Origin: a virus
Lineage: Duplodnaviria > Caudoviricetes
Reading direction: 5' to 3' (one strand)
IMG/VR virus record: IMGVR_UViG_3300011832_000025
Length of the DNA: 64,000 nucleotides
In this document: positions 5,155-51,738 of the stretch, piece after piece
Position numbering within the stretch: position 1 is the stretch's first letter
Layout of the letters: each line of letters begins with the position of its first letter
The notes under the pieces: model-generated
What the model was told of the DNA's origin: nothing
What the model saw: only the letters and a program-made list of their open reading frames with translations
Database searches by the model: none
Position numbers and translations under genes: made by a program

Positions 5155-5416
5155 CAGTATAAACCTTGGCCACCACAGCCCCACAATGGGGCTGTGTTTT
5201 TTTGTGTTGCCGATAATGAGCGCGCTGAACCGCAAATAACGACAGGCCTAAGTCCACCAAAGAACACTTGTCAAACACAAAAAAAGAAGCTACAGTGGTT
5301 CTATGAGCACTTTATTTCTCCTCCGTTGCCGTTGTTGTTGATCCCCGTTGCCGGGGCCATATGTGTTGGGCTTGAAAAATTAACACATGTATTCAACAAC
5401 AATATGAGGAGTTTTT

Positions 5417-6766
5417 ATGAGCATTGTGTTTCAAGATTCGTTGTCGCGCCAACTTCTGGCCGTTCCCCACGACACCACCACCCCCATTTCGTTTTACGCG
5501 TGCGGCATCACGCCCTATTCTGATGCCCACATTGGCCACGCCCGTTCGTTTGTGGTGTTCGACTTAATGCGCCGCGTACTGGAGACCGATGGCTACACTG
5601 TTAATTTGGTGCGCAATATCACCGACGTGGATGATAAAATTATTGCCCAGGCGGCCGCGCAAAATCGTCATTGGAAAGAGTTGGCGCATTCGTTTGCCGC
5701 CCAAAACCGCCAGTTGATGAGCGAAATGAATGTGGGACACTACGAAGAACCCGCCGCAAGCGAACACATTCCCGACATTATTGATTTGGTGGAACGTTTG
5801 ATTGCAAAGGGTCACGCTTATGTGGGCGAGAATGGGGATGTGTTGTATTCGGTCAAAAGTTTCCAAGGCGCCCCTCTCATGCCGCACGACTTGGACGATT
5901 TGGGCCACAACGGAGCACGAGTGCAACACGATGGCAAGCGCGACAACCATGATTTTGTGTTGTGGAAAGGCGCAAAACCCAACGAACCCTCGTGGCCTTC
6001 GCCGTGGGGCAATGGCCGACCAGGCTGGCATATCGAATGCTCAGCCATGATTGAAAAACGGTTTGGCGCAACCATTGATTATCATGGCGGTGGCACGGAT
6101 TTGCGTTTTCCCCACCACCAAGCGGAAATTCAACAAAGCGAGGCGGCGTACGACCGCCCCTTAGCTCACCGTTGGGTGCACCACGGGTCGGTGCGCGATG
6201 GACGGGGTCAAAAAATGTCCAAATCGTTGGGGAACGTGGTGTTGCTCAAAGACGCGTTGGCCAGCGCCGAATCCCTGGCGCCGGGCGCGGGGGGCGCGGT
6301 GTTGCGCCACGCCTTGCTCAGCGCGTTGTGGACCAAACCATTGGATTATTGGCCCGCCACAACGCTAAAAACTTCTGTGTCCCATCTCACCCAATGGAGC
6401 AAGGCCGCGCAAAAGGGTACTGTGTCCGCGCAGATGAACGAGCGTTTGACGGCCCCCTTGCGCGAAAATCTCAACACACCAAAGTTCTTTGCGCTGTTGC
6501 ATGAATTGAGTTCCGAAGCAAAACGTGGTTCTCAAGACGCCGCCGCGGCGGTATACGAAGGCCTTATTCGTTTGGGCGTGGCTGAAACCGCCATCGCCGC
6601 CCTCAAACACGAAGACGTGGTTGAAACTCCGCAACACATTCAAGATTTGCTCAATCAACGCGAGCAGCACCGACACAACCGTGATTTTGCCCAAGCGGAT
6701 GCGGTGCGTGATCAACTAAAGAAACTTGGATGGGGGGTGCAAGATAAACCACTGAAAATCAAATAA
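5417..6766 (+). CDS. cysS: cysteinyl-tRNA synthetase
   Basis: YACGITPY..HIGH, RNITDVDDKII, DFVLWK, GRPGWHIECSAM, GGGTDLRFPHH, KMSKSLGN. Confidence 0.95.
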   Translation: MSIVFQDSLSRQLLAVPHDTTTPISFYACGITPYSDAHIGHARSFVVFDLMRRVLETDGYTVNLVRNITDVDDKIIAQAAAQNRHWKELAHSFAAQNRQLMSEMNVGHYEEPAASEHIPDIIDLVERLIAKGHAYVGENGDVLYSVKSFQGAPLMPHDLDDLGHNGARVQHDGKRDNHDFVLWKGAKPNEPSWPSPWGNGRPGWHIECSAMIEKRFGATIDYHGGGTDLRFPHHQAEIQQSEAAYDRPLAHRWVHHGSVRDGRGQKMSKSLGNVVLLKDALASAESLAPGAGGAVLRHALLSALWTKPLDYWPATTLKTSVSHLTQWSKAAQKGTVSAQMNERLTAPLRENLNTPKFFALLHELSSEAKRGSQDAAAAVYEGLIRLGVAETAIAALKHEDVVETPQHIQDLLNQREQHRHNRDFAQADAVRDQLKKLGWGVQDKPLKIK

Positions 6767-42823: not shown

Positions 42824-43255
42824 ATGAACAACACTCTTGATTTTGACCAAGCGGTGAACTTTGTGTCAAAGTGGGTAGCTCAATTGCAATCGTATCTGAG
42901 CGTCAACAGGTGGGCGTACACCAGCGATGGGACGCACCATTGGGGAATTAGCAAGAGCGAGCGCGCAGAACTGGTTGAACATCTTTTTGCAAAAATATGG
43001 CACAGCGATCGCCCTCAAATCCTGATGGAAGCCCTATCGGTGCACCTTTCGTCGCTAACCAACATTTCCAACAAGTACAATCTTCCCAAAACATATGTAA
43101 GTGAGAGTAAAGATACAAACCACGCCACATGGGACACAAAGATTTTTTGTGAAGCTTTGGACTACGATGTGTCGCAGTTGATGAGCATATGGGCCTGTTG
43201 CAACGAAGTGGGCGCGAAATATATGTCCGCGGAAGTCAAAAAGAACAAAATGTGA
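42824..43255 (+). CDS. hypothetical protein, paralog of 42375, tail KNKM
   Basis: Shared N-terminus and HL.SL...LP..Y motifs. Confidence 0.7.
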   Translation: MNNTLDFDQAVNFVSKWVAQLQSYLSVNRWAYTSDGTHHWGISKSERAELVEHLFAKIWHSDRPQILMEALSVHLSSLTNISNKYNLPKTYVSESKDTNHATWDTKIFCEALDYDVSQLMSIWACCNEVGAKYMSAEVKKNKM

Positions 43256-43374
43256 CATGAGCCGCACTTTTCATCGACCAACACGGATACATTCCCATCG
43301 GTCCCCGTCAACAGCGAAGTGGATGAACGCCACCTGAGTAAAATCAGCGCTTTAAAAAATTTTTCAAAAACCTG

Positions 43375-43403
43375 TTGACAAAGAATTTTAAACCCGATAG
43401 CAT
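43375..43403 (+). promoter_or_regulatory. sigma70-type promoter upstream of leader ORF and tRNA array
   Basis: TTGACA-17 nt-TAGCAT. Confidence 0.7.
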
Positions 43404-43487
43404 TACTCACATGGCGGATGTTTCTTCCGCCCTACACCCTGGCGACTTTGAAGTCGCTTTTAACTTAACGAATAAAGGATCTTACTC

Positions 43488-43664
43488 ATGTTCACCGTTT
43501 CCGCCACCGCTACTTCTGCAAGCCGCTCGGCTTCGGGCGTGGCTGCGCGCGCTTCGGGTGCCTTGGTTAAGACCAACGCCTTCGCTGGTGCTGGCTTCGG
43601 CTGGAACCATAATATTCATAATATTTGGGCCTTCGGGACCCTGCGAACAGGTGCGTGTGTGTAA
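43488..43664 (+). CDS. 58-aa leader peptide ORF (not in ORF track)
   Basis: RBS aaagga; MFTVSATATSASRSASGVAARASGALVKTNAFAGAGFGWNHNIHNIWAFGTLRTGACV*. Confidence 0.65.
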   Translation: MFTVSATATSASRSASGVAARASGALVKTNAFAGAGFGWNHNIHNIWAFGTLRTGACV

Positions 43665-43722
43665 GGCTTAGCCAAACCATACAAATGTTCAAAGGGTCCC
43701 AGAAATGGGACCCTTTTGTTTT
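43632..43722 (+). promoter_or_regulatory. attenuator: antiterminator strand (43632-43649) and intrinsic terminator (43691-43722)
   Basis: TTCGGGACCCTGCGAACA pairs with TGTTCAAAGGGTCCCAGAA, mutually exclusive with AAAGGGTCCC-agaaat-GGGACCCTTT-tgtttt. Confidence 0.7.
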
Positions 43723-43786
43723 GTGTTGAAAAATCAAAATTAAGAAAAACGTAATAAATAAGTGGTAAGAAATACTGTTTTAATCA

Positions 43787-44090
43787 GGACGCGGTGCAAC
43801 CAACACCAAATCCAGAACAACCGCCAGAAATGGCCTGTGGCGACGCTAACCACAAGTATTATGGGTCGTATTGAAATCGCAGGAGTTGAGCGTTCAACGC
43901 TTAATCAAATGAAAGGGCAGCATTCAGAACAGCGAATATGTCTCTCCCCGAACAATACGACGCAACCCCATTCAAGAGGTAGCAATCTTGGGTGGCCAGG
44001 TATGGGAGACGATGGATCCATCATTGAACCGCAAGGTTTTACGAAAGTAAAACTGCAGCTAGTGAAATGATCAAAGTGTGATCCGCCCCC
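43787..44090 (+). ncRNA. candidate structured non-coding RNA, family unknown
   Basis: Helices 43865-73/43953-61, 43886-92/43898-904, 44035-42/44047-54 (GAAA loop); several GNRA-like loops; lies at head of tRNA array. Confidence 0.45.
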
Positions 44091-44152
44091 GTAAAAAAAC
44101 AGATAGGTTGTTCGTGCGCGCATTGTTGTTAAACGCACGCATCGCAATATGT

Positions 44153-44229
44153 GGACCCGATAGTTTAATTGGCAAAACGTTCCCACTTTATAGGGAAAGA
44201 CATTGGTTCGAAACCATTTTGGGTCCCCA
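44153..44229 (+). tRNA. atypical tRNA: G-1/C73 (His-like), 8-nt anticodon loop ACTTTATA (possible UUA anticodon)
   Basis: GACCCGA/TTGGGTC acceptor, TTCCC/GGGAA stem, TTCGAAA T-loop, encoded CCA. Confidence 0.7.
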
Positions 44230-44288
44230 AAGATAAAAAAGTTAATCGGTGAGATAATAAAAAGTTTATCGTTGAAAGGTAATAATTT

Positions 44289-44363
44289 GATCGCATAGCT
44301 CAGAGGCAGAGCAACTCCCTGTTAAGGAGTGGGTCGTAGGTTCAATCCCTACTGTGATCGCCA
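44289..44363 (+). tRNA. tRNA-Asn(GTT)
   Basis: Canonical cloverleaf, loop CT-GTT-AA, CCA. Confidence 0.92.
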
Positions 44364-44386
44364 AATTGTAAGCAAAAAAAGTTTAT

Positions 44387-44467
44387 GGACGGTTGGCTGA
44401 GTGGTTTAAGCAACGGACTGTTAATCCGTGGAGAAATCCAACGTAGGTTCGATACCTACACCGTCCG
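44387..44467 (+). tRNA. tRNA with GTT (Asn) anticodon on a class II body (long variable arm); no encoded CCA
   Basis: GGACGGT/ACCGTCC, ACGGA-CT-GTT-AA-TCCGT, V-arm GGAGAAATCCAAC. Confidence 0.85.
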
Positions 44468-44547
44468 AAATTTTCTCAAGTTATTGAAATTGTTGATTTT
44501 TTGTATTGATTTTGTTATACTCCGGAAACAAAATTTTGGGATATATT

Positions 44548-45666
44548 ATGTACAAGAAAATCAAAGAAATTGATATTGAAGAAATCAAAATTGCTATAAG
44601 TAAAACTGTTTCAAAAAGACAAGCAATTGAATTATTAAATTGTAATACGCAGCGTGTAGCCAACTTTCATGCTTTAAATTTTTTAATTGTTAAACATAAG
44701 ATCAATATTGAACATTATGATCCAATGTATAAATACAACAAAATTCCAGATTTCATTAAAATGTCTTACAGCTTGGTTGATGTGGCAAAAAATGTCTGTT
44801 TGGTAAATGACGATGTTTCTAAAATTAGTGCCCGACTTTGCAAAAATATCAAAAAGTACATCAATGAAAACAATTTGGACACATCACATTTTCGTCATTC
44901 TTCTAAAGTCGGGTATAATGTTACACGAACAAACGAAGAAGTTTTTGCTAAAAACAGTGATGTTTCACAATCTACTGTGAAGAAGCGTTTTATAGCAAAG
45001 GTTAAATATGAGTGTGCAGTTTGTGGTGTAGCAAGTTGGAATAACGCTCACTTATCGCTTCAGTTGGATCATATTGATGGTGATAATCAAAACAATCTGA
45101 TAACTAATTTGCGACTTTTATGCCCCAATTGCCATTCCCAAACGGAAAATTTTGGTAGTAAAAATAAAACATTCAAGTTACACAAAAAATCAAATGTAAA
45201 CGATAAAGTTGATTTTACGAGTAAGGCTGTAAAAAAAGACCGTACAAAAAAAGTTAAAGATTTGTTTATTTCAGATAAAGATTTGTTTATTTCAGATAAA
45301 GAAAGGCGTCAATCGCGAGCAGATAAAATTTTGAAAACTTTGAAATCGTCTTCAATCGATTTTTCAAAACACGGTTGGGCAACTCCAGCAAGCAAAATTA
45401 TTGGAGTAGGTCATCAACATGTGGCGCGTTGGATGCGAATGTATGCGGCTGATTTTTATAAGGAGAAGTGTTTTATAAGGAAACCAATGGTTGATTTGGT
45501 TAAAAATTGGAAGGAAGATAAATGTAAAATTAAAAAATGTGAATTTAAAACTATCCTGGCAATGAAAGATAGAGGTTATTCGATAAATAAAATAGCGAAG
45601 AAATACGGAGTGCATCATTCTAGCGTACAAAAAATTTTAAAAACAATTGACACACAAAATAAATAA
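44548..45666 (+). CDS. HNH homing-type endonuclease with C-terminal HTH
   Basis: CAVCG...LQLDHIDGDNQNNLITNLRLLCPNCHSQT; low GC; internal 21-nt tandem duplication (KDLFISD x2). Confidence 0.9.
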   Translation: MYKKIKEIDIEEIKIAISKTVSKRQAIELLNCNTQRVANFHALNFLIVKHKINIEHYDPMYKYNKIPDFIKMSYSLVDVAKNVCLVNDDVSKISARLCKNIKKYINENNLDTSHFRHSSKVGYNVTRTNEEVFAKNSDVSQSTVKKRFIAKVKYECAVCGVASWNNAHLSLQLDHIDGDNQNNLITNLRLLCPNCHSQTENFGSKNKTFKLHKKSNVNDKVDFTSKAVKKDRTKKVKDLFISDKDLFISDKERRQSRADKILKTLKSSSIDFSKHGWATPASKIIGVGHQHVARWMRMYAADFYKEKCFIRKPMVDLVKNWKEDKCKIKKCEFKTILAMKDRGYSINKIAKKYGVHHSSVQKILKTIDTQNK

Positions 45667-45687
45667 TGTAACGTACAAAAATTAAAT

Positions 45688-45763
45688 GCGGGAGTAGCTC
45701 AATTGGTAGAGCGTCGCCTTGCCAAGGCGAAGGTTGCGGAATCGTCCTCCGTCTCCCGCTCCA
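45688..45763 (+). tRNA. tRNA-Gly(GCC), non-canonical T-loop ATCGTCC
   Basis: GCGGGAG/CTCCCGC, loop TT-GCC-AA, T73-CCA. Confidence 0.9.
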
Positions 45764-45771
45764 TTTAAAAT

Positions 45772-45848
45772 GCTTCCTTAGTTCAGTTGGTTAGAACATC
45801 TGATTGTTAATCAGAGGGTCCCCCGTTCGAGTCGGGGAGGAAGCGCCA
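45772..45848 (+). tRNA. tRNA-Asn(GTT)
   Basis: GCTTCCT/AGGAAGC, TCTGA-TT-GTT-AA-TCAGA, CCA. Confidence 0.92.
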
Positions 45849-45991
45849 TCTTCGGGCTGCAAGCGTGTAAGTCGGTGACAACACTGCGTTGAAAACGTAC
45901 TTAGTGAAAGGCTAAGAGGCCAACCAATTTTTCATCCAGACGCTTTCCACAGCGTCTTTCTTTTTTCAAACAGTAGGTCGGTTTTGTAGCT

Positions 45992-46105
45992 TGTGTTGAC
46001 GCGCTGTACTGGCTGAAAGATGTTGGCGCATGTTACGACGAAGTCGTGGCATAAGCCACAACATCGCCACATGCTCAATGCTAACCCATTGTCAACGCAC
46101 ACCAC
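45992..46105 (+). repeat. structured hairpin element, long form, free-standing copy
   Basis: TGTGTTGACGCG...CATTGTCAACGCACACCAC; nearly identical to 49151-49263. Confidence 0.85.
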
Positions 46106-46264
46106 TTTTAGAGGTCTAACAAGTAGCACCGGCTTTGGTCACCGCGATGCACCTCTCGACGTTATTCGGTGTTGTAATGTAAGACCACCACCCGCAAAAA
46201 GAGCGGGCTCTTCCTTTTGCCGCTTGAAGGTGGTATTATCCGCTCGGTCTCAAAGGGGTTGCTT

Positions 46265-46855
46265 ATGAATATTATTGCAAAATTGAACGAGAAGTTGTCA
46301 AAATACACGTCTCCCAAGGTCAATTGGTTGACGAAAAGACCGTGGTTGCTCCAAGTGGTGGGAACAACCTTGTCTTTACTGACTTTGGGGGTGTCCTTGG
46401 CGCTTTTCACGCCCTTTCTCATGTCATCGTATACGTTTTTCGTGTCGACGTTAATTGTAATATTTGGCTTTATCATGGTGCCCCTTCCATCAGCGGTTGT
46501 ATTTTGGCTGTTTGGAAAACACCAAACGCCTCAACGGGAAAAGGTTGTTGAAAAATACACCAATCTTATTCTTAAGAATTTTGCGGAAAGTGAATATTAT
46601 GATATGAAAATTGGGTTGCTAAAAATTCTCAACAATGAACCGTACACGCCTGTGTATTTCTTGGACGAAATGGTTCGATTGAAGGAAATTGCTGATCAGC
46701 AAAGACAAAGAAAAAAAGATGAAAACTCCGTAGCTGTCAATGACTCGTCAACATTGACCGTTTTAATTGAACAAATGGAACAAGATCAAACCGCCAGCCA
46801 GGCTGCAAAAAACGAGATGCGCGAACAGAAATTGAAAAATGTGTTCAAGTTATAA
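46265..46855 (+). CDS. 2-TM membrane protein, possible distant LPxxWW-family member; tail VFKL
   Basis: Two TM segments, similar length and tail. Confidence 0.65.
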   Translation: MNIIAKLNEKLSKYTSPKVNWLTKRPWLLQVVGTTLSLLTLGVSLALFTPFLMSSYTFFVSTLIVIFGFIMVPLPSAVVFWLFGKHQTPQREKVVEKYTNLILKNFAESEYYDMKIGLLKILNNEPYTPVYFLDEMVRLKEIADQQRQRKKDENSVAVNDSSTLTVLIEQMEQDQTASQAAKNEMREQKLKNVFKL

Positions 46856-46891
46856 AAAAAAAGAGGGGTAAACCCCTCTTTTTTGTTGAAC

Positions 46892-47248
46892 TCAACCAAG
46901 TGCTTCAAGTTCTTCCAGTGTGATTTTGCTGGCGGTCATATCGCGTGCAACGGGCGCAATTTTGTGGGTGGCCACAGCGTTGGCGAACGCCTGATAATTT
47001 CCCAAGTAATCGCAGGATTCATAGTCGGGGTCTGCATCCTCCATGACATAGTAGAAATTTTCGTACACACTGTAACGCAGATCCTCCACATTCACGCCCG
47101 CCAGATTGGCTATTTCCTTGCGCTGGACAGTGTGGAACACAACATCGGTGTAATCGGCGTGGTGGGTGGTGTCATAATACTGACCGTCCACAAAAATCGA
47201 CCAGTAGTTTTCATCACTGATCATTACAAGTTCAACGTGACCTTTCAT
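46892..47248 (-). CDS. hypothetical acidic protein
   Basis: RBS gggag; convergent terminator at about 46861-46884. Confidence 0.65.
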   Translation of the reverse strand: MKGHVELVMISDENYWSIFVDGQYYDTTHHADYTDVVFHTVQRKEIANLAGVNVEDLRYSVYENFYYVMEDADPDYESCDYLGNYQAFANAVATHKIAPVARDMTASKITLEELEALG

Positions 47249-47347
47249 GCAGTTCTCCCAAGTTGTGAATGGGGGAAGTATACCACAGGAATTGGGGGAA
47301 AGTGTTAAAAGGATGAAAGTTTTGGAAGGCGTTTAAGTAACAGATAT

Positions 47348-47423
47348 ACTTCGGTAGCTCAATTGGTGGAGCAAAACTCTGATAAAGTTTAGGTTACGGG
47401 TTCGAGTCCCGTCTGAAGTACCA
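47348..47423 (+). tRNA. tRNA-Ile(GAT)
   Basis: ACTTCGG/CTGAAGT, AAACT-CT-GAT-AA-AGTTT, CCA. Confidence 0.9.
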
Positions 47424-47437
47424 AATTGTAATTCTAT

Positions 47438-47573
47438 GGTGATCGTGGCGGGAGTGTGTTGACGCGGTGTATTGGCTTATGCCAATACGAGTATTGTCAA
47501 CGCACACCACGATGTAAACGCACCTGATTGTGAGTCAGGTTTTTTGAGGGTTCAAGTCCCTTCGACCACCCCA
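47438..47573 (+). tRNA. tRNA-His(GTG) with about 60-nt hairpin insert in the D-loop (about 47454-47512)
   Basis: G-1/C73, CCTGA-TT-GTG-AG-TCAGG, T-arm, CCA; one acceptor mismatch. Confidence 0.8.
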
Positions 47574-47582
47574 TTTTTTTAT

Positions 47583-47658
47583 ACCACGGTAGCTCAATTG
47601 GTAGAGCTCTCGGTCGATAACCGAGTGGTCATAGATTCAAATCCTATCCGTGGTACCA
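47583..47658 (+). tRNA. tRNA-Ile(GAT) with C33
   Basis: CTCGG-TC-GAT-AA-CCGAG, CCA. Confidence 0.88.
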
Positions 47659-47663
47659 AATAT

Positions 47664-47740
47664 ACGTCGGTAGCTCAATCGGCAGAGCACTCCCGCAAAT
47701 AAGGGAAAGGTTGTAGGTTCAACTCCTACCTGGCGTGCCA
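47664..47740 (+). tRNA. atypical tRNA with 8-nt anticodon loop GCAAATAA, isotype undetermined
   Basis: ACGTCGG/CTGGCGT-G-CCA; intact D and T arms; TCCC/GGGA stem. Confidence 0.7.
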
Positions 47741-47754
47741 AATTGTAATTCTAT

Positions 47755-47892
47755 GGTGGTCGTGGCGGGAGTGTGTTGACGCGGTGTATTGGCTTATGCC
47801 AATGCTAACGCATTGTCAACGCACACCACGATGTAAACGCACCTGATTGTGAGTCAGGCTTTTTGAGGGTTCAAGTCCCTTCGACCACCCCA
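47755..47892 (+). tRNA. tRNA-His(GTG) with about 60-nt hairpin insert in the D-loop (about 47771-47831)
   Basis: Duplicate of 47438 with perfect acceptor stem. Confidence 0.8.
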
Positions 47893-47902
47893 TTGTTTTT
47901 AT

Positions 47903-47978
47903 ACCACGGTAGCTCAGTTGGTAGAGCTCTCGGTCGATAACCGAGTGGTCATAGGTTCAAATCCTATCCGTGGTACCA
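47903..47978 (+). tRNA. tRNA-Ile(GAT) with C33
   Basis: Duplicate of 47583. Confidence 0.88.
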
Positions 47979-48042
47979 ATATATTGATTTGTAAGTGTAT
48001 TTTATGCTATTATGCGTAATCTTTTACGAGGTGCATAAAATT

Positions 48043-48973
48043 ATGAAGGTTAATCAAGAGCGTGTTAATCAAGCTATTGAATTACGTCGTCAAGGAAAAA
48101 CGTTTGACGAAATAAAGTCTATAATGGGAGCAGATAAAGGGACTTTAAGGAAATGGTTTTCATCTGTAGTTTTTACTCCGGAAGAAACTCTCTTGATAAA
48201 TCAAAATATAGTGTCTCGACGTACAAATCGTTTAAACAAACCTTTGCCACCTGAAAATAAAAAAATAAAAGGCCTGGCTCCAACCGCAAAAAACTATACC
48301 AAATATCTGCAGGCTATTGAATTTCGAAAAAACGGTTGCGGATTAGACGATATAGCGAAGCGCTTGGGTGTTGCTAAGAGTTCGGTTTCACTTTGGGTGC
48401 GGCATATTCAATTAAATGAATATCAAAAAAGGTGTTTAATCGGTTGTGAGCCTGGAAAGATTTCACCTGCCCGGCAAAAAGCCGTTGAGGCGAACCGAAA
48501 AAAATATGCGGATCTGCGTAATACCGCGCGCCAACAAGGTTATGATGAGGCGTTGGGCGATCCAGTGCATGTTGCAGGGTGTATGTTGTATTGGGCTGAA
48601 GGTACTAAATCAATAAATAAGGTTGAATTTTCAAACACCGACGCATCTATGCAGAAAAAATTCAAAAAGTTTCTTGAACATCTCGGAGTTCCTTCTGAAA
48701 AAATAAAATTTTATACGCGTGTCCATAACACAGAAGAAAATGGAACCCACGAAGAATGCAAAAACTTTTGGGCGGAAAAACTAAATATATCCAAGAGTCA
48801 AATCAAAGTGTATGACGCAAAAGATGAAAGATGCTCGTGGAGATAGCAAGACCAAGTCACGCTACCCGTTTGGTGTCGGCCGTCTTGAGGTCCATGACTA
48901 CACAATCATTCAACGCATCTATGGTGGTATCGAGCGCTACATTGGTGAAGAAATTCCATATGGTCGGAAATAA
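48043..48973 (+). pseudogene. HTH plus LAGLIDADG-like homing endonuclease gene, frameshifted by a 7-nt duplication
   Basis: HTH (IAKRLGVAKSSVSLW), LYWAEG, FSNTD; AAAGATG x2 at 48820-48833; removing one copy restores frame to ...YPFGVGRLEV...GRK*. Confidence 0.7.
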
Positions 48974-48997
48974 AGTAAATGTTTTTAAATGTTCTAT

Positions 48998-49083
48998 GGT
49001 GAGCGTGGCGAAATTGGTAGACGTACCGGATTGTGATTCCGGTGCCGCAAGGCGTGAGGGTTCAAGTCCCTTCGTTCACCCCA
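48998..49083 (+). tRNA. tRNA with GTG (His) anticodon and G-1/C73 on a Leu-like class II body
   Basis: D region GGCGAAATTGGTAGACG, V-arm TGCCGCAAGGCGT, CCA. Confidence 0.85.
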
Positions 49084-49124
49084 TATTGTTTGAATTTGAA
49101 TGCGTCAGATGTGGTTGTGTTTTA

Positions 49125-49311
49125 CGGACGTTAGCTCAGTTGGTAGAGCATGTGTTGACGCGATGTATTGGCTTAAAAGATGTTGGCGCATGTTATGACG
49201 AAGTCGTGGCATAAGCCACAACATCGCAACATGCTCAATGCACGCATTGTCAACGCACATCGCGTTCTCTTAACCAGTAGGTCGAAGGTTCGAACCCTTC
49301 ACGTCCCACCA
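49125..49311 (+). tRNA. tRNA-Lys(CTT) interrupted by long-form hairpin element (about 49151-49263) in the 5' anticodon stem; may be non-functional
   Basis: GGACGT/ACGTCC, GCTCAGTTGGTAGAGC, CT-CTT-AA-CCAGT, T-arm, CCA. Confidence 0.7.
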
Positions 49312-49368
49312 AAAGTTTGACTTCCTTGGTGTTTGACCTAAAATAAGACAAACACCATAAGGATTTTT

Positions 49369-49971
49369 ATGACCGAAGATATTCTCAAAAACGTTAATGA
49401 CGCAAAAAGTAAAAAAGAAAAATTGCAGCGTGTTGCGGCACGGACAGGTTTGGGTGCAGCATGTGTTTGGCTGGCGGGGGCATTCATGTCGGTCTCAGCT
49501 GTAACGACAGTGGGGGTCGTGACATTGTGCGCGGCGCAACTGGCAAAAGAATTTTTCGAGCAGAAAGGCCGACGTGATGTGATGCTCAAGCAACGGAACA
49601 TTGCCCAACAATTCGGAACTCCCAACGATGTTGATACCATCAATCAAGCGTTGGACAGTGACGCAAAACAAAACGCGCTGGGCAACAAAATGGCAACCGC
49701 CACTGTATTGATTGCCAGCGCCATTGGCTTGTCTCCGTTTTTGGTTGCATCAAACCCCCCTTCAGGTGTTTTCGTCGGAACCATCATTGTTGGAGCGTTT
49801 GCCGGACTGCGCGCCGCACGCGCTATTGAGAAAAAAGAGCAATCCGACATTCGTTTTTATGGGGTTCAACCCATTGTTGCCGAAAATGTCGTGTCGTCCA
49901 TTTTAAAAGAGCGCGGCATACAAGAAGGTGGAAAAATCGATCTCAAACCATCGCGCATCAAAATGAAGTAA
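49369..49971 (+). CDS. hypothetical membrane protein (two pairs of hydrophobic helices)
   Basis: RBS aagga; architecture like 4558 and 20486; tail RIKMK. Confidence 0.7.
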   Translation: MTEDILKNVNDAKSKKEKLQRVAARTGLGAACVWLAGAFMSVSAVTTVGVVTLCAAQLAKEFFEQKGRRDVMLKQRNIAQQFGTPNDVDTINQALDSDAKQNALGNKMATATVLIASAIGLSPFLVASNPPSGVFVGTIIVGAFAGLRAARAIEKKEQSDIRFYGVQPIVAENVVSSILKERGIQEGGKIDLKPSRIKMK

Positions 49972-50097
49972 TCAGGCAACACATCAGATACAAAAAAAAA
50001 GGCCATTCGTTGAGTGGCTTTTTTGTGTGTGAAATTTAATATTTTAACCCCTTATGTTCTACCATTTTTTATGTGTCCAGTTGTGTTGTAAATATAC

Positions 50098-50175
50098 GCG
50101 TCAATAGCTCAATTCAGGCAGAGCAAAATTCTCCAAAAATTTAGGTTGGGGGTTCGAGTCCCTCTTGGCGCGCCA
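50098..50175 (+). tRNA. tRNA-Trp(CCA) with all-AU anticodon stem
   Basis: AAATT-CT-CCA-AA-AATTT, G73-CCA. Confidence 0.88.
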
Positions 50176-50204
50176 AGTCATTGTTTTTGTTATATTTTTT
50201 TAAT

Positions 50205-50275
50205 ACGTCGTTCGTCCAAGGGTAGGACCCCTGACTCCAAATCAGGTAATGAGAGTTCGAATCTTTCACGGCGTG
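50205..50275 (+). tRNA. tRNA-Trp(CCA) with Glu/Gln-type D-arm; no encoded CCA
   Basis: ACGTCGT/ACGGCGT, GTCC/GGAC D-stem, CCTGA-CT-CCA-AA-TCAGG. Confidence 0.85.
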
Positions 50276-50340
50276 AAATTTTTTAAGTGTTGATATTGTC
50301 CTTCAAAAATGCTATAAAATAGCAAAAATGGAGGCGCAGT

Positions 50341-51738
50341 ATGGATGCTTTTGAAAAAGCTTGTTTATTGGTGCGGCAAGGACATTCCATTATTCAATCT
50401 GCAAAAAAATGCGGCGTGAACGAAGGAACACTTCGTCGCTACATGAAGAAAAACGGTGTGGTATCAGAAGGCCAAAAAATTTTGAAGAAAAACGCGGAAC
50501 AAAAAACTCGAGTTATTGAACTGCGCAAATTGGGCTTATCTTATTCCCAAATTTCTGAAAAGACTAAGTTGTGCATAACGAGTGTTGCAAATTGGTGTTC
50601 GCATATTGTTCTTCAAGAAGAGCAAAAAAAGAAAAACGCACGGGCCCTCGTTGACAAGCAAAAGCAGGCAGTGAAGCTCCGCAAAGAGGGAATGTATATT
50701 ACAGAGATCGCCAAAAAATTGAATTGCTCCAAGGTATCCGTGCATTTGTGGTTGAAAAACCACATTAAGAAATATGGTGATAATCTTGGTTCTGCTTGCC
50801 AAAAAAGAAAAGATTTGAAAAGGGAACTTCAAATTTCCACATTGCACCCTCTAACCGATATTGTGGTCGAAAAACGTAAGATGGGAATGAGCTATTCTGA
50901 AATTTCCGTTGAACTAAAAATAAGTAGTAAACGTGCTCATGATATTATAAAGAAAGCCAATTTATCCGAAACAGAATTATTGGAAGCTAAACGCAATCTC
51001 AAAAAACGCCAACGGTATCTCCTGGACAATGGGTTAATTAAACCTCGTGGCGGCGACCGACTCAACTCCGGCTGGTCCAAGACCGGCTACTACAAGGGTA
51101 TTTATTGCGGCTCCACATATGAATTGTGCTGGGTCATCCATGCGATAGATCATGGTGTGCAATTCAAACGCTTTGAGGGTGTCTTGAAAAAAGATGGTGT
51201 AACCTATATTCCCGACTTTCTGCTCGATGATGGGATCACCATTATTGAACTCAAAGGATACGATGTGCGTGAGAATGTGAACAAAAAAACCAAACTGGCC
51301 GAAAGTCTCGGTTATAAAGTTAATGTGTTGCGCGAACAAGAGTTGCAACCCATATTTGATTATGTGAAGAAACACTACGGTGTGTCGTGGCAAAAATCAT
51401 ACACTCTGTTCGATGGGTTTAAACCAACCTATACATACGAGTGCACCACTTGCTGCAAAACGTTTTCCACGGAGAACAAGCGGCCCATGAAAAACGGCAC
51501 GGTGTTTTGTTCGGGCTCATGTTCGGCCACTCACCGCAATGCTCAAAATAAAACAAACTCCCAAAGTAAAGCGCCAACAACGCAATTCAAATCAAAGTTA
51601 TCGCAAGAGGGTATCGTTAAAGTTTTTTACGCTTCGGGTACATACGCTTCAATTGCCGAACAATACAATATCTCTCAATCCAGTGTGTGTTTCATCAAAA
51701 ACAAGAGAATCCACAAATCCATCACCGAACACCTTTAA
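50341..51738 (+). CDS. multi-HTH PD-(D/E)xK homing-type endonuclease
   Basis: Repeated HTHs (G.SY..IS), GYYKGIYCGSTYEL, YIPDFLL...IIELKG, Cys-rich zinc motif. Confidence 0.8.
   Translation: MDAFEKACLLVRQGHSIIQSAKKCGVNEGTLRRYMKKNGVVSEGQKILKKNAEQKTRVIELRKLGLSYSQISEKTKLCITSVANWCSHIVLQEEQKKKNARALVDKQKQAVKLRKEGMYITEIAKKLNCSKVSVHLWLKNHIKKYGDNLGSACQKRKDLKRELQISTLHPLTDIVVEKRKMGMSYSEISVELKISSKRAHDIIKKANLSETELLEAKRNLKKRQRYLLDNGLIKPRGGDRLNSGWSKTGYYKGIYCGSTYELCWVIHAIDHGVQFKRFEGVLKKDGVTYIPDFLLDDGITIIELKGYDVRENVNKKTKLAESLGYKVNVLREQELQPIFDYVKKHYGVSWQKSYTLFDGFKPTYTYECTTCCKTFSTENKRPMKNGTVFCSGSCSATHRNAQNKTNSQSKAPTTQFKSKLSQEGIVKVFYASGTYASIAEQYNISQSSVCFIKNKRIHKSITEHL

Follow-up and report, generated by a model that had tools for sequence, protein, structure and literature searches.

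The subject of this analysis is a short transcriptional cassette that stands in front of an array of tRNA genes in the viral DNA record IMGVR_UViG_3300011832_000025. The stretch analysed, referred to below as the window, is 64,000 nt long; all coordinates count from its first letter and the features described are on the plus strand. Next to each other at this locus lie a strong host-type promoter, a 58-codon open reading frame (ORF), an intrinsic terminator, a non-coding spacer and the tRNA genes. An initial annotation of the DNA had suggested that the ORF encodes a leader peptide whose translation decides whether transcription ends at the terminator or continues into the array. The features, in the order of their coordinates, are the following:

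43345-43403, plus strand: A/T-rich upstream tract and sigma-70-type promoter (−35 TTGACA at 43375-43380, −10 TAGCAT at 43398-43403).
43413-43431, plus strand: hairpin GGCGG...CCGCC in the 5′ untranslated region (UTR), which in relatives reads GGCAGCC...GGCGCC.
43441-43458, plus strand: extra 7-bp hairpin, part of an insertion unique to the variant in the window and missing from the related loci L011-L019.
43474-43479, plus strand: Shine-Dalgarno sequence AAAGGA, 8 nt ahead of the start codon and invariant in all variants.
43477-43574, plus strand: predicted long-range helix with conserved pairs, between the Shine-Dalgarno-proximal GGAUCUUA (43477-43484) and UAAGACC in the middle of the ORF (43568-43574).
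43488-43664, plus strand: putative leader ORF of 58 codons (51-58 in relatives), ATG at 43488 and TAA at 43662-43664.
43576-43584, plus strand: segment 1, the predicted 5′ strand of an anti-antiterminator, CGCCUUCGC, whose pairing with 43643-43653 closes a four-way junction.
43602-43628, plus strand: putative regulatory codon run TGG AAC CAT AAT ATT CAT AAT ATT TGG (W N H N I H N I W), codons 39-47.
43627-43641, plus strand: local C(UUCG)G hairpin with 4 invariant pairs, in which the GGGACCC core of segment 2 is also sequestered.
43635-43653, plus strand: segment 2, the predicted 5′ strand of an antiterminator, GGGACCCUGCGAACA (43635-43649), of which 43643-43653 also pairs with segment 1.
43686-43701, plus strand: segment 3, the 5′ arm of the terminator with its flank, whose alternative partners are segment 2 and segment 4.
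43691-43725, plus strand: intrinsic terminator with an 11-bp stem (43691-43701/43706-43716), a GAAA loop and the U-tract UUUUGUUUUG.
43726-44153, plus strand: conserved non-coding spacer from the terminator to the first tRNA gene, with no sigma-70-like promoter.
44154-50276, plus strand: tRNA array with genes for tRNA-Asn (three), Gly, Ile (three), His and Trp (two) and for two tRNAs with 8-nt anticodon loops, with interspersed HNH/HTH ORFs.

The promoter, the ORF and the strong terminator that the initial annotation had read from the DNA are all in place. The two hexamers are 17 nt apart, score 10 of 12 and form the best plus-strand promoter-like site of the region. They are identical in all related loci, which also keep the TTTTTTCAAAAA tract, and the extended promoter motif occurs once in the window. 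Transcription probably starts near 43410, which would put the start of the ORF about 78 nt into the transcript, behind the Shine-Dalgarno sequence. In the hairpin of the 5′ UTR the outer 3 pairs are invariant and one inner pair shows a double change, while the extra hairpin at 43441-43458, which is missing in L011-L019, is therefore not essential to the element. The terminator has a predicted energy of −19.5 kcal/mol, and 11/11 of its pairs are kept in all variants examined, with one U-A/U-G change.

The terminator has an alternative partner within the ORF. The sequence GGGACCCTGCGAACA (43635-43649) is complementary to TGTTCAAAGGGTCCC (43686-43700) at 13 of 15 positions, and its core is a copy of the 3′ arm of the terminator. 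For the resulting antiterminator duplex we obtained −23.9 kcal/mol. When the 120 nt upstream were shuffled 1000 times with their dinucleotides preserved, the value was −13.3 ± 2.3 kcal/mol, and no shuffle reached the observed one (0/1000). The near-complementarity between the end of the leader and the terminator, which had been noticed earlier, is thus well beyond chance. In all seven aligned variants, 12 of the 13 pairs are kept. Folding predicts that the helix between segments 2 and 3 (2:3) and the terminator helix (3:4) are mutually exclusive.

Folding also predicts a helix that was absent from the initial annotation, namely the anti-antiterminator formed by segments 1 and 2 (1:2). The arms of the four-way junction that it closes are a UUCG hairpin, an AAUAUU-CAU-AAUAUU hairpin made of the codon run and the GGGCC-UUCG-GGACCC hairpin. 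The run can fold in this way, as a 6-bp A-U hairpin, because AATATT is palindromic. According to the predicted folds, the upstream part of the ORF holds segment 2 in most variants until segment 3 emerges, and it does so by differing sequences. Where CGCCUUCGC is missing, GCGCCGG pairs with CCGGCG instead, which is possible because of a T-to-G change at 43642. Closer to the start codon, the long-range helix (GGAUCUYA/URAGAYC) encloses a long irregular hairpin at 43493-43560, which is invariant. The helix itself keeps 7/7 pairs in 7/7 variants, with one double change from C-G to U-A. It may serve to limit re-initiation or to time the first ribosome, and either role is compatible with classical attenuators. 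The leader as a whole is structured (z = −3.3).

Both alternative conformers were found when the folds were computed, and the order in which they would appear depends on how much of the RNA has been made. With segment 3 present and segment 4 not yet transcribed, the 2:3 fold is favoured over the junction state by 11.5 kcal/mol. Once segment 4 is present, the junction together with the terminator becomes the best fold (−55.4 versus −47.7 kcal/mol). The estimated findpath barriers between the two folds are about 12.5 kcal/mol in both directions; therefore the fold that arises first should last throughout the decision window, as in a kinetic switch.

The position of a ribosome on the ORF was simulated in seven variants by masking 30 nt around the A site, an assumed footprint, on a truncated transcript that lacked segment 4. 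The probability of the 2:3 helix was at least 0.86 at most A-site positions up to N45 in 7/7 variants, was half lost at I46 and was 0 from W47 through the codons in the mid-50s. This pattern indicates that, for most codons of the run, a ribosome pausing there would free segment 2, whereas one that runs on would mask it, so that under the assumed footprint the geometry is that of an attenuator. According to the earlier proposal it is the ribosome reaching the stop codon that masks the antiterminator. Masking by a translating ribosome was recovered for codons 46-57, and the part of the claim that concerns the stop codon as such was not, because the simple mask no longer covers GGGACCC when the ribosome is there. 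At the stop codon the 2:3 helix, which would have to close around the ribosome, may be excluded sterically, and GAACA is covered.

Just 5′ of the antiterminator strand lies the run from W39 to W47, which is composed of Trp, Asn, His and Ile codons only. In the 16,750 amino acids of the window's ORFs the longest run of these four residues elsewhere is 4, and the probability of a run of at least 6 in 55 random residues is 3.6e-4 when the 9-nt tandem repeat is collapsed. The array has the anticodons CCA, GTT, GTG and GAT, which match the codons TGG, AAC/AAT, CAT and ATT of the run. Codons for the amino acids tied to the downstream genes are thus clustered as in leader peptides. The initial annotation had described a wider segment, K-T-N-A-F-A-G-A-G-F-G-W-N-H-N-I-H-N-I-W, as enriched in the amino acids of the tRNAs. 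Its second half holds, G-W-N-(H)-N-I-H-N-I-W being conserved, and its first half, K-T-N-A-F-A-G-A-G-F, is not conserved in the relatives. As a separate observation, the run is built from the 9-nt tandem repeat CATAATATT (43606-43620), and the copy number differs among variants, giving NIHNIW, HNIHNIW and HNIHNIHNIW.

About 30 metagenome contigs supplied the related loci, which were compared as nine sequence variants; pairs of the helices were counted in the seven that were aligned. The exact 58-residue product is encoded on 20 contigs, and a search of 5.8 billion proteins gave six diverged products of 51-58 residues with 72-81% identity. A protein search can find only intact ORFs, and therefore loci were also collected through a gene for a 118-residue protein about 3.3 kb downstream. 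The leader was in frame in 5/5 of these loci that reach it, and two new variants were added. A gapped DNA pattern designed on the untranslated 3′ sequence and run against JGI metagenomes found 3 contigs of known variant types, all of them in frame. All nine variants keep the promoter hexamers, the ribosome-binding site, the ATG, the reading frame, G-W-N-(H)-N-I-H-N-I-W and the stop codon (TAA). Within the alignment the 3′ UTR and the terminator are invariant except for one A/G change in the stem. Codons 22-38 have been rewritten by at least 6 insertion or deletion (indel) events, all of them multiples of 3, while indels in the 5′ UTR are not; outside these codons we counted about 7 amino-acid changes and 4 silent ones. 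Because the indels are in frame and substitutions that alter the peptide occur about as often as silent ones, it appears that the frame matters and the sequence of the peptide hardly does, as expected for a leader peptide. A description of the leader as ultra-conserved was considered and dropped, since its fourfold sites change no less than those of the neighbouring 118-residue gene.

Downstream of the leader there were tRNA genes, at least one each, in 15/15 loci scanned. The first begins 431-837 nt past the terminator, and 431 nt past it in the window. The longer loci carry several Asn tRNAs, one Gly and several Ile tRNAs, followed by His, Lys and two Trp tRNAs, and also odd tRNAs with 8-nt anticodon loops or tRNA-Leu(CAG); taken together, the related arrays contain Asn, Gly, Ile, His, Lys and Trp tRNAs. 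The upstream neighbour varies: L011-L013 have a gene for a 682-residue protein on the minus strand there, with the cassette intact. As the upstream neighbour changes and the tRNAs stay, the cassette seems to travel with the array. Independent promoters downstream of the terminator had been named beforehand as an observation that would speak against attenuation. The scan for sigma-70-like promoters, which is blind to promoters of a phage-encoded polymerase, found none between the terminator and the first tRNA gene in 12/15 loci, and none that is conserved.

Taken together, these features are best explained by a multivalent leader-peptide transcription attenuator of the trp/his/ilv type that gates the tRNA array. 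This is a reading of sequence and predicted folds, and we give it a probability of roughly two in three. It is supported by mutually exclusive helices beyond chance, the 1:2 fold, the placement of the codon run, the conservation, the linkage to tRNA genes and the lack of a conserved promoter in the spacer. Everything that identifies a leader-peptide attenuator at the sequence level is present, the anti-antiterminator by fold prediction. The genes downstream are not those of the classical scope, which are for biosynthesis or aminoacyl-tRNA synthetases; they are tRNA genes and homing-type ORFs.

The proposed mechanism is as follows. Transcription would start at the host-type promoter, and the first 310 nt would comprise the 58-codon ORF and end in the terminator. 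By default the 3′ half of the ORF would fold as the four-way junction that holds segment 2, segments 3 and 4 would pair and transcription would stop. The same outcome would be expected of a ribosome that runs smoothly over codons 46-58, since segment 2 would lie under it during synthesis of segments 3 and 4. When the supply of charged tRNA for Trp, Asn, His or Ile falls short, the lead ribosome would dwell on WNHNIHNIW. Such a ribosome would have opened the junction and would sit inside it, so that the free segment 2 ahead of it could capture the emerging segment 3. The terminator then could not form, and RNA polymerase would cross the 430-nt spacer into the tRNA genes. Since the array would supply tRNAs for exactly those codons, the circuit would be a multivalent negative-feedback loop on decoding capacity.

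Several points weigh against this attenuator. A second forward frame is likewise open across the region, so that the openness of the ORF by itself means little. Apart from the run, the leader shows no enrichment for the amino acids of the array; at 58 codons it is also long for a leader, and the proposed mechanism assigns no function to its conserved 5′ half. The AATATT palindromes within the run might act at the RNA or DNA level instead of being read as codons. Divergence at fourfold sites is about 10%, the same as in the neighbouring 118-residue gene, which makes the family a shallow one; dN/dS is uninformative with so few changes, and with one double change in the structural helices the divergence is too low for real covariation. 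When the full-length RNA was folded at equilibrium with the ribosome mask, the terminator won at most positions and the antiterminator reached 0.4-0.97 at some positions only. The proposed model therefore depends on kinetics; equilibrium folding of the full-length RNA is not decisive for the same reason, because attenuation is kinetic. Finally, there are promoter-like sites within the array, and promoters of a phage polymerase would be invisible to the scan.

The last point bears directly on the first of three other explanations, according to which the cassette is an independent small gene that has a promoter and a terminator for itself. It would make a peptide of 51-58 residues or a trans-acting small RNA, and the array would use other promoters, either those of a phage polymerase or internal ones. 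The strength of the terminator, the compact cassette conserved from promoter to terminator and the sites inside the array all suit such a gene, and in other systems terminated attenuator RNAs and leader peptides can reportedly act in trans. It would, however, leave the antiterminator complementarity and the tRNA-matching run of Trp, Asn, His and Ile codons as coincidences. The peptide matches no PHROG family or other protein family, amino-acid and silent changes are near parity, no conserved promoter was found in the spacer and the cassette always accompanies the array and not its upstream neighbours. We consider a small gene of this kind unlikely.

Alternatively, the switch may be made of RNA only: the leader would bind a ligand, a protein or a tRNA that chooses between antiterminator and terminator, and the ORF would be incidental or would modulate the fold. 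The strong structure of the leader agrees with this idea, as do the long conserved hairpin of its 5′ half, whose closing helix buries the Shine-Dalgarno region, the several C(UUCG)G loops and the nucleotide conservation that extends beyond the stop codon. The burial of the Shine-Dalgarno region is, however, also compatible with leader-peptide attenuators, and the codon run is meaningful only if a ribosome reads it. The Shine-Dalgarno sequence, the ATG, the frame and the stop codon have been kept through the indel events in the middle of the ORF. No known RNA family was recognised either. At gathering thresholds Rfam 15 gave nothing except tRNAs. When 43250-44300 was searched at E ≤ 10, all matches were below threshold and driven by the terminator, including a weak match to Phe_leader (22 bits, threshold 55) that reflects the terminator alone, and the T-box covariance model had no match. 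An RNA-only switch is thus quite unlikely in our opinion. That the terminator merely ends an upstream operon of genes for paralogous proteins with two transmembrane segments, with the complementarity and the run devoid of regulatory function, is very improbable: although no terminator is predicted between the end of the upstream gene (43255) and the leader, so that upstream transcription could enter, a conserved consensus promoter lies between that gene and the terminator, the upstream gene is on the opposite strand in L011-L013 and the statistics of the antiterminator and the codon run speak against chance.

The proposed attenuator resembles the enterobacterial ones, namely the multivalent leaders ilvGMEDA (Ile/Leu/Val) and thr (Thr/Ile) and also trpL, hisL, leuL and pheL. 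Common to them are a promoter-proximal short ORF with clustered regulatory codons, mutually exclusive 1:2, 2:3 and 3:4 segments and an intrinsic terminator before the regulated genes, and in the multivalent leaders several amino acids are sensed by one leader. There are also differences. Biosynthetic enzymes are regulated in enterobacteria, whereas here it would be tRNA genes in a phage-like mobile genome. The leaders have 14-32 codons there and 51-58 here, the run lies in segment 1 itself there and inside the loop closed by 1:2 here, and the 1:2 state is a four-way junction here. The pheM attenuator of E. coli pheST likewise controls a gene of the translation apparatus by leader-peptide attenuation and senses the cognate charged tRNA. 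It regulates a synthetase and responds to one amino acid, whereas at the present locus the tRNAs themselves would be regulated in response to four to five amino acids. T-box riboswitches, too, control translation-related genes by switching between terminator and antiterminator according to the charging of tRNA. They bind uncharged tRNA directly and need no ORF, while the present leader has neither a T-box match in Rfam nor a specifier loop or T-box bulge. A full-text search of the literature found nothing on attenuation of tRNA genes or of phage tRNA arrays.

A closer analogue of pheM than the tRNA-array leader is found elsewhere in the window, directly upstream of the gene for Cys-tRNA synthetase (CysRS; 5417-6766). 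In the region 5268-5416 there is a promoter-like site (5268-5296) and a mini-ORF of 12 codons at 5303-5341, M S T L F L L R C R C C stop, with its ATG at 5303 about 7 nt after the −10 element. Folding (z = −3.0) predicts that the cysS Shine-Dalgarno sequence, UUCAACAACAA...GAGGAG, is paired with CUCCUC...UGUUGUUGA in the mini-ORF. Because of this pairing, a ribosome stalled at the Cys codons would free the ribosome-binding site of the synthetase, and the mini-ORF looks like a Cys-sensing translational attenuator, as judged by codons and predicted pairing. As it precedes CysRS, this genome seems to make a practice of placing codon-matched leaders before its translation genes. Among 24 distant viral CysRS loci with a full upstream flank, the clearest similar case is L103, a 415-kb IMG/VR viral contig whose CysRS has 37% identity; it has MDTSTVFPIVRCVCGCC at 861-914, about 300 nt upstream of the gene. 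L041 also has a mini-ORF beginning MCC. Since clear cases are few among the 24 loci, Cys leaders appear to be sporadic and not universal.

The genes of the window are mostly on the plus strand and of unknown function; besides CysRS and the array there are an N6 DNA methylase and ORFs of the homing type (HNH/HTH). A 236-kb metagenome scaffold carries the same DNA as the window. Ten large ORFs of the window had 0 matches among PHROG families, none of the phage hallmark families was matched in the window, and neither near nor distant searches found similar DNA in records of cultured phages. No relatives were found in IMG/VR through the upstream protein or through a 35-nt pattern. We describe the element as large and phage-like, a wording chosen because the window has no hallmark family and no similarity to cultured phages; where we speak of a phage or a giant phage below, this follows from gene content.

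The spacer and the array have further peculiarities. Identity in the spacer is mostly 86-93% across variants, with block indels, and 43726-44153 contains no Rfam match and no ORF of consistent size. Readthrough transcripts would include the spacer, which may form a structured RNA. The tRNAs with 8-nt anticodon loops (44154-44229 and 47664-47740), for which ARAGORN gives 2- or 4-base anticodons, occupy the same array positions in L001, L006, L011 and L015-L017, and in some variants the second position has tRNA-Leu(CAG) instead. Long variable arms are present in tRNA-Asn(GTT) (83 nt, 44386-44468) and tRNA-His(GTG) (85 nt, 48999-49083). One anticodon is carried by several different tRNA bodies in the case of Asn (three), Ile (three) and Trp (two). 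ORFs with HNH plus HTH or with multiple HTH domains are located among the tRNA genes at 44506-45666, 47995-48846 and 50341-51738. These ORFs resemble homing endonucleases, and related loci vary in which of them are present and in how large they are.

Phage tRNA genes are usually seen as constitutive supplements to codon usage or as replacements after host defences have destroyed the tRNAs of the cell (PMC10264068, PMC11464382, PMC11555353). How expression of these genes is controlled has hardly been addressed. With regard to the present locus, we tentatively suggest that the leader could be an inducible counter-defence switch that monitors how codons for Trp, Asn, His and Ile (and Gly) are decoded. 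The redundant array would be on only when the corresponding host tRNAs are depleted or cut, e.g. by anticodon nucleases, and off once tRNAs of the element itself have restored decoding; together with the Cys leader it would make a giant-phage set of codon-matched sensors for translation genes. It is possible, though speculative, that the switch responds to damage that host defences inflict on tRNAs. If the attenuator is real, it would provide a phage with a demand-driven and self-limiting supply of tRNAs, and attenuation of the trp/his type would be extended to RNA genes. Its promoter, ribosome-binding site and terminator are of ordinary bacterial type. The leader would also be a sequence signature that predicts which tRNAs matter to an uncultured phage.

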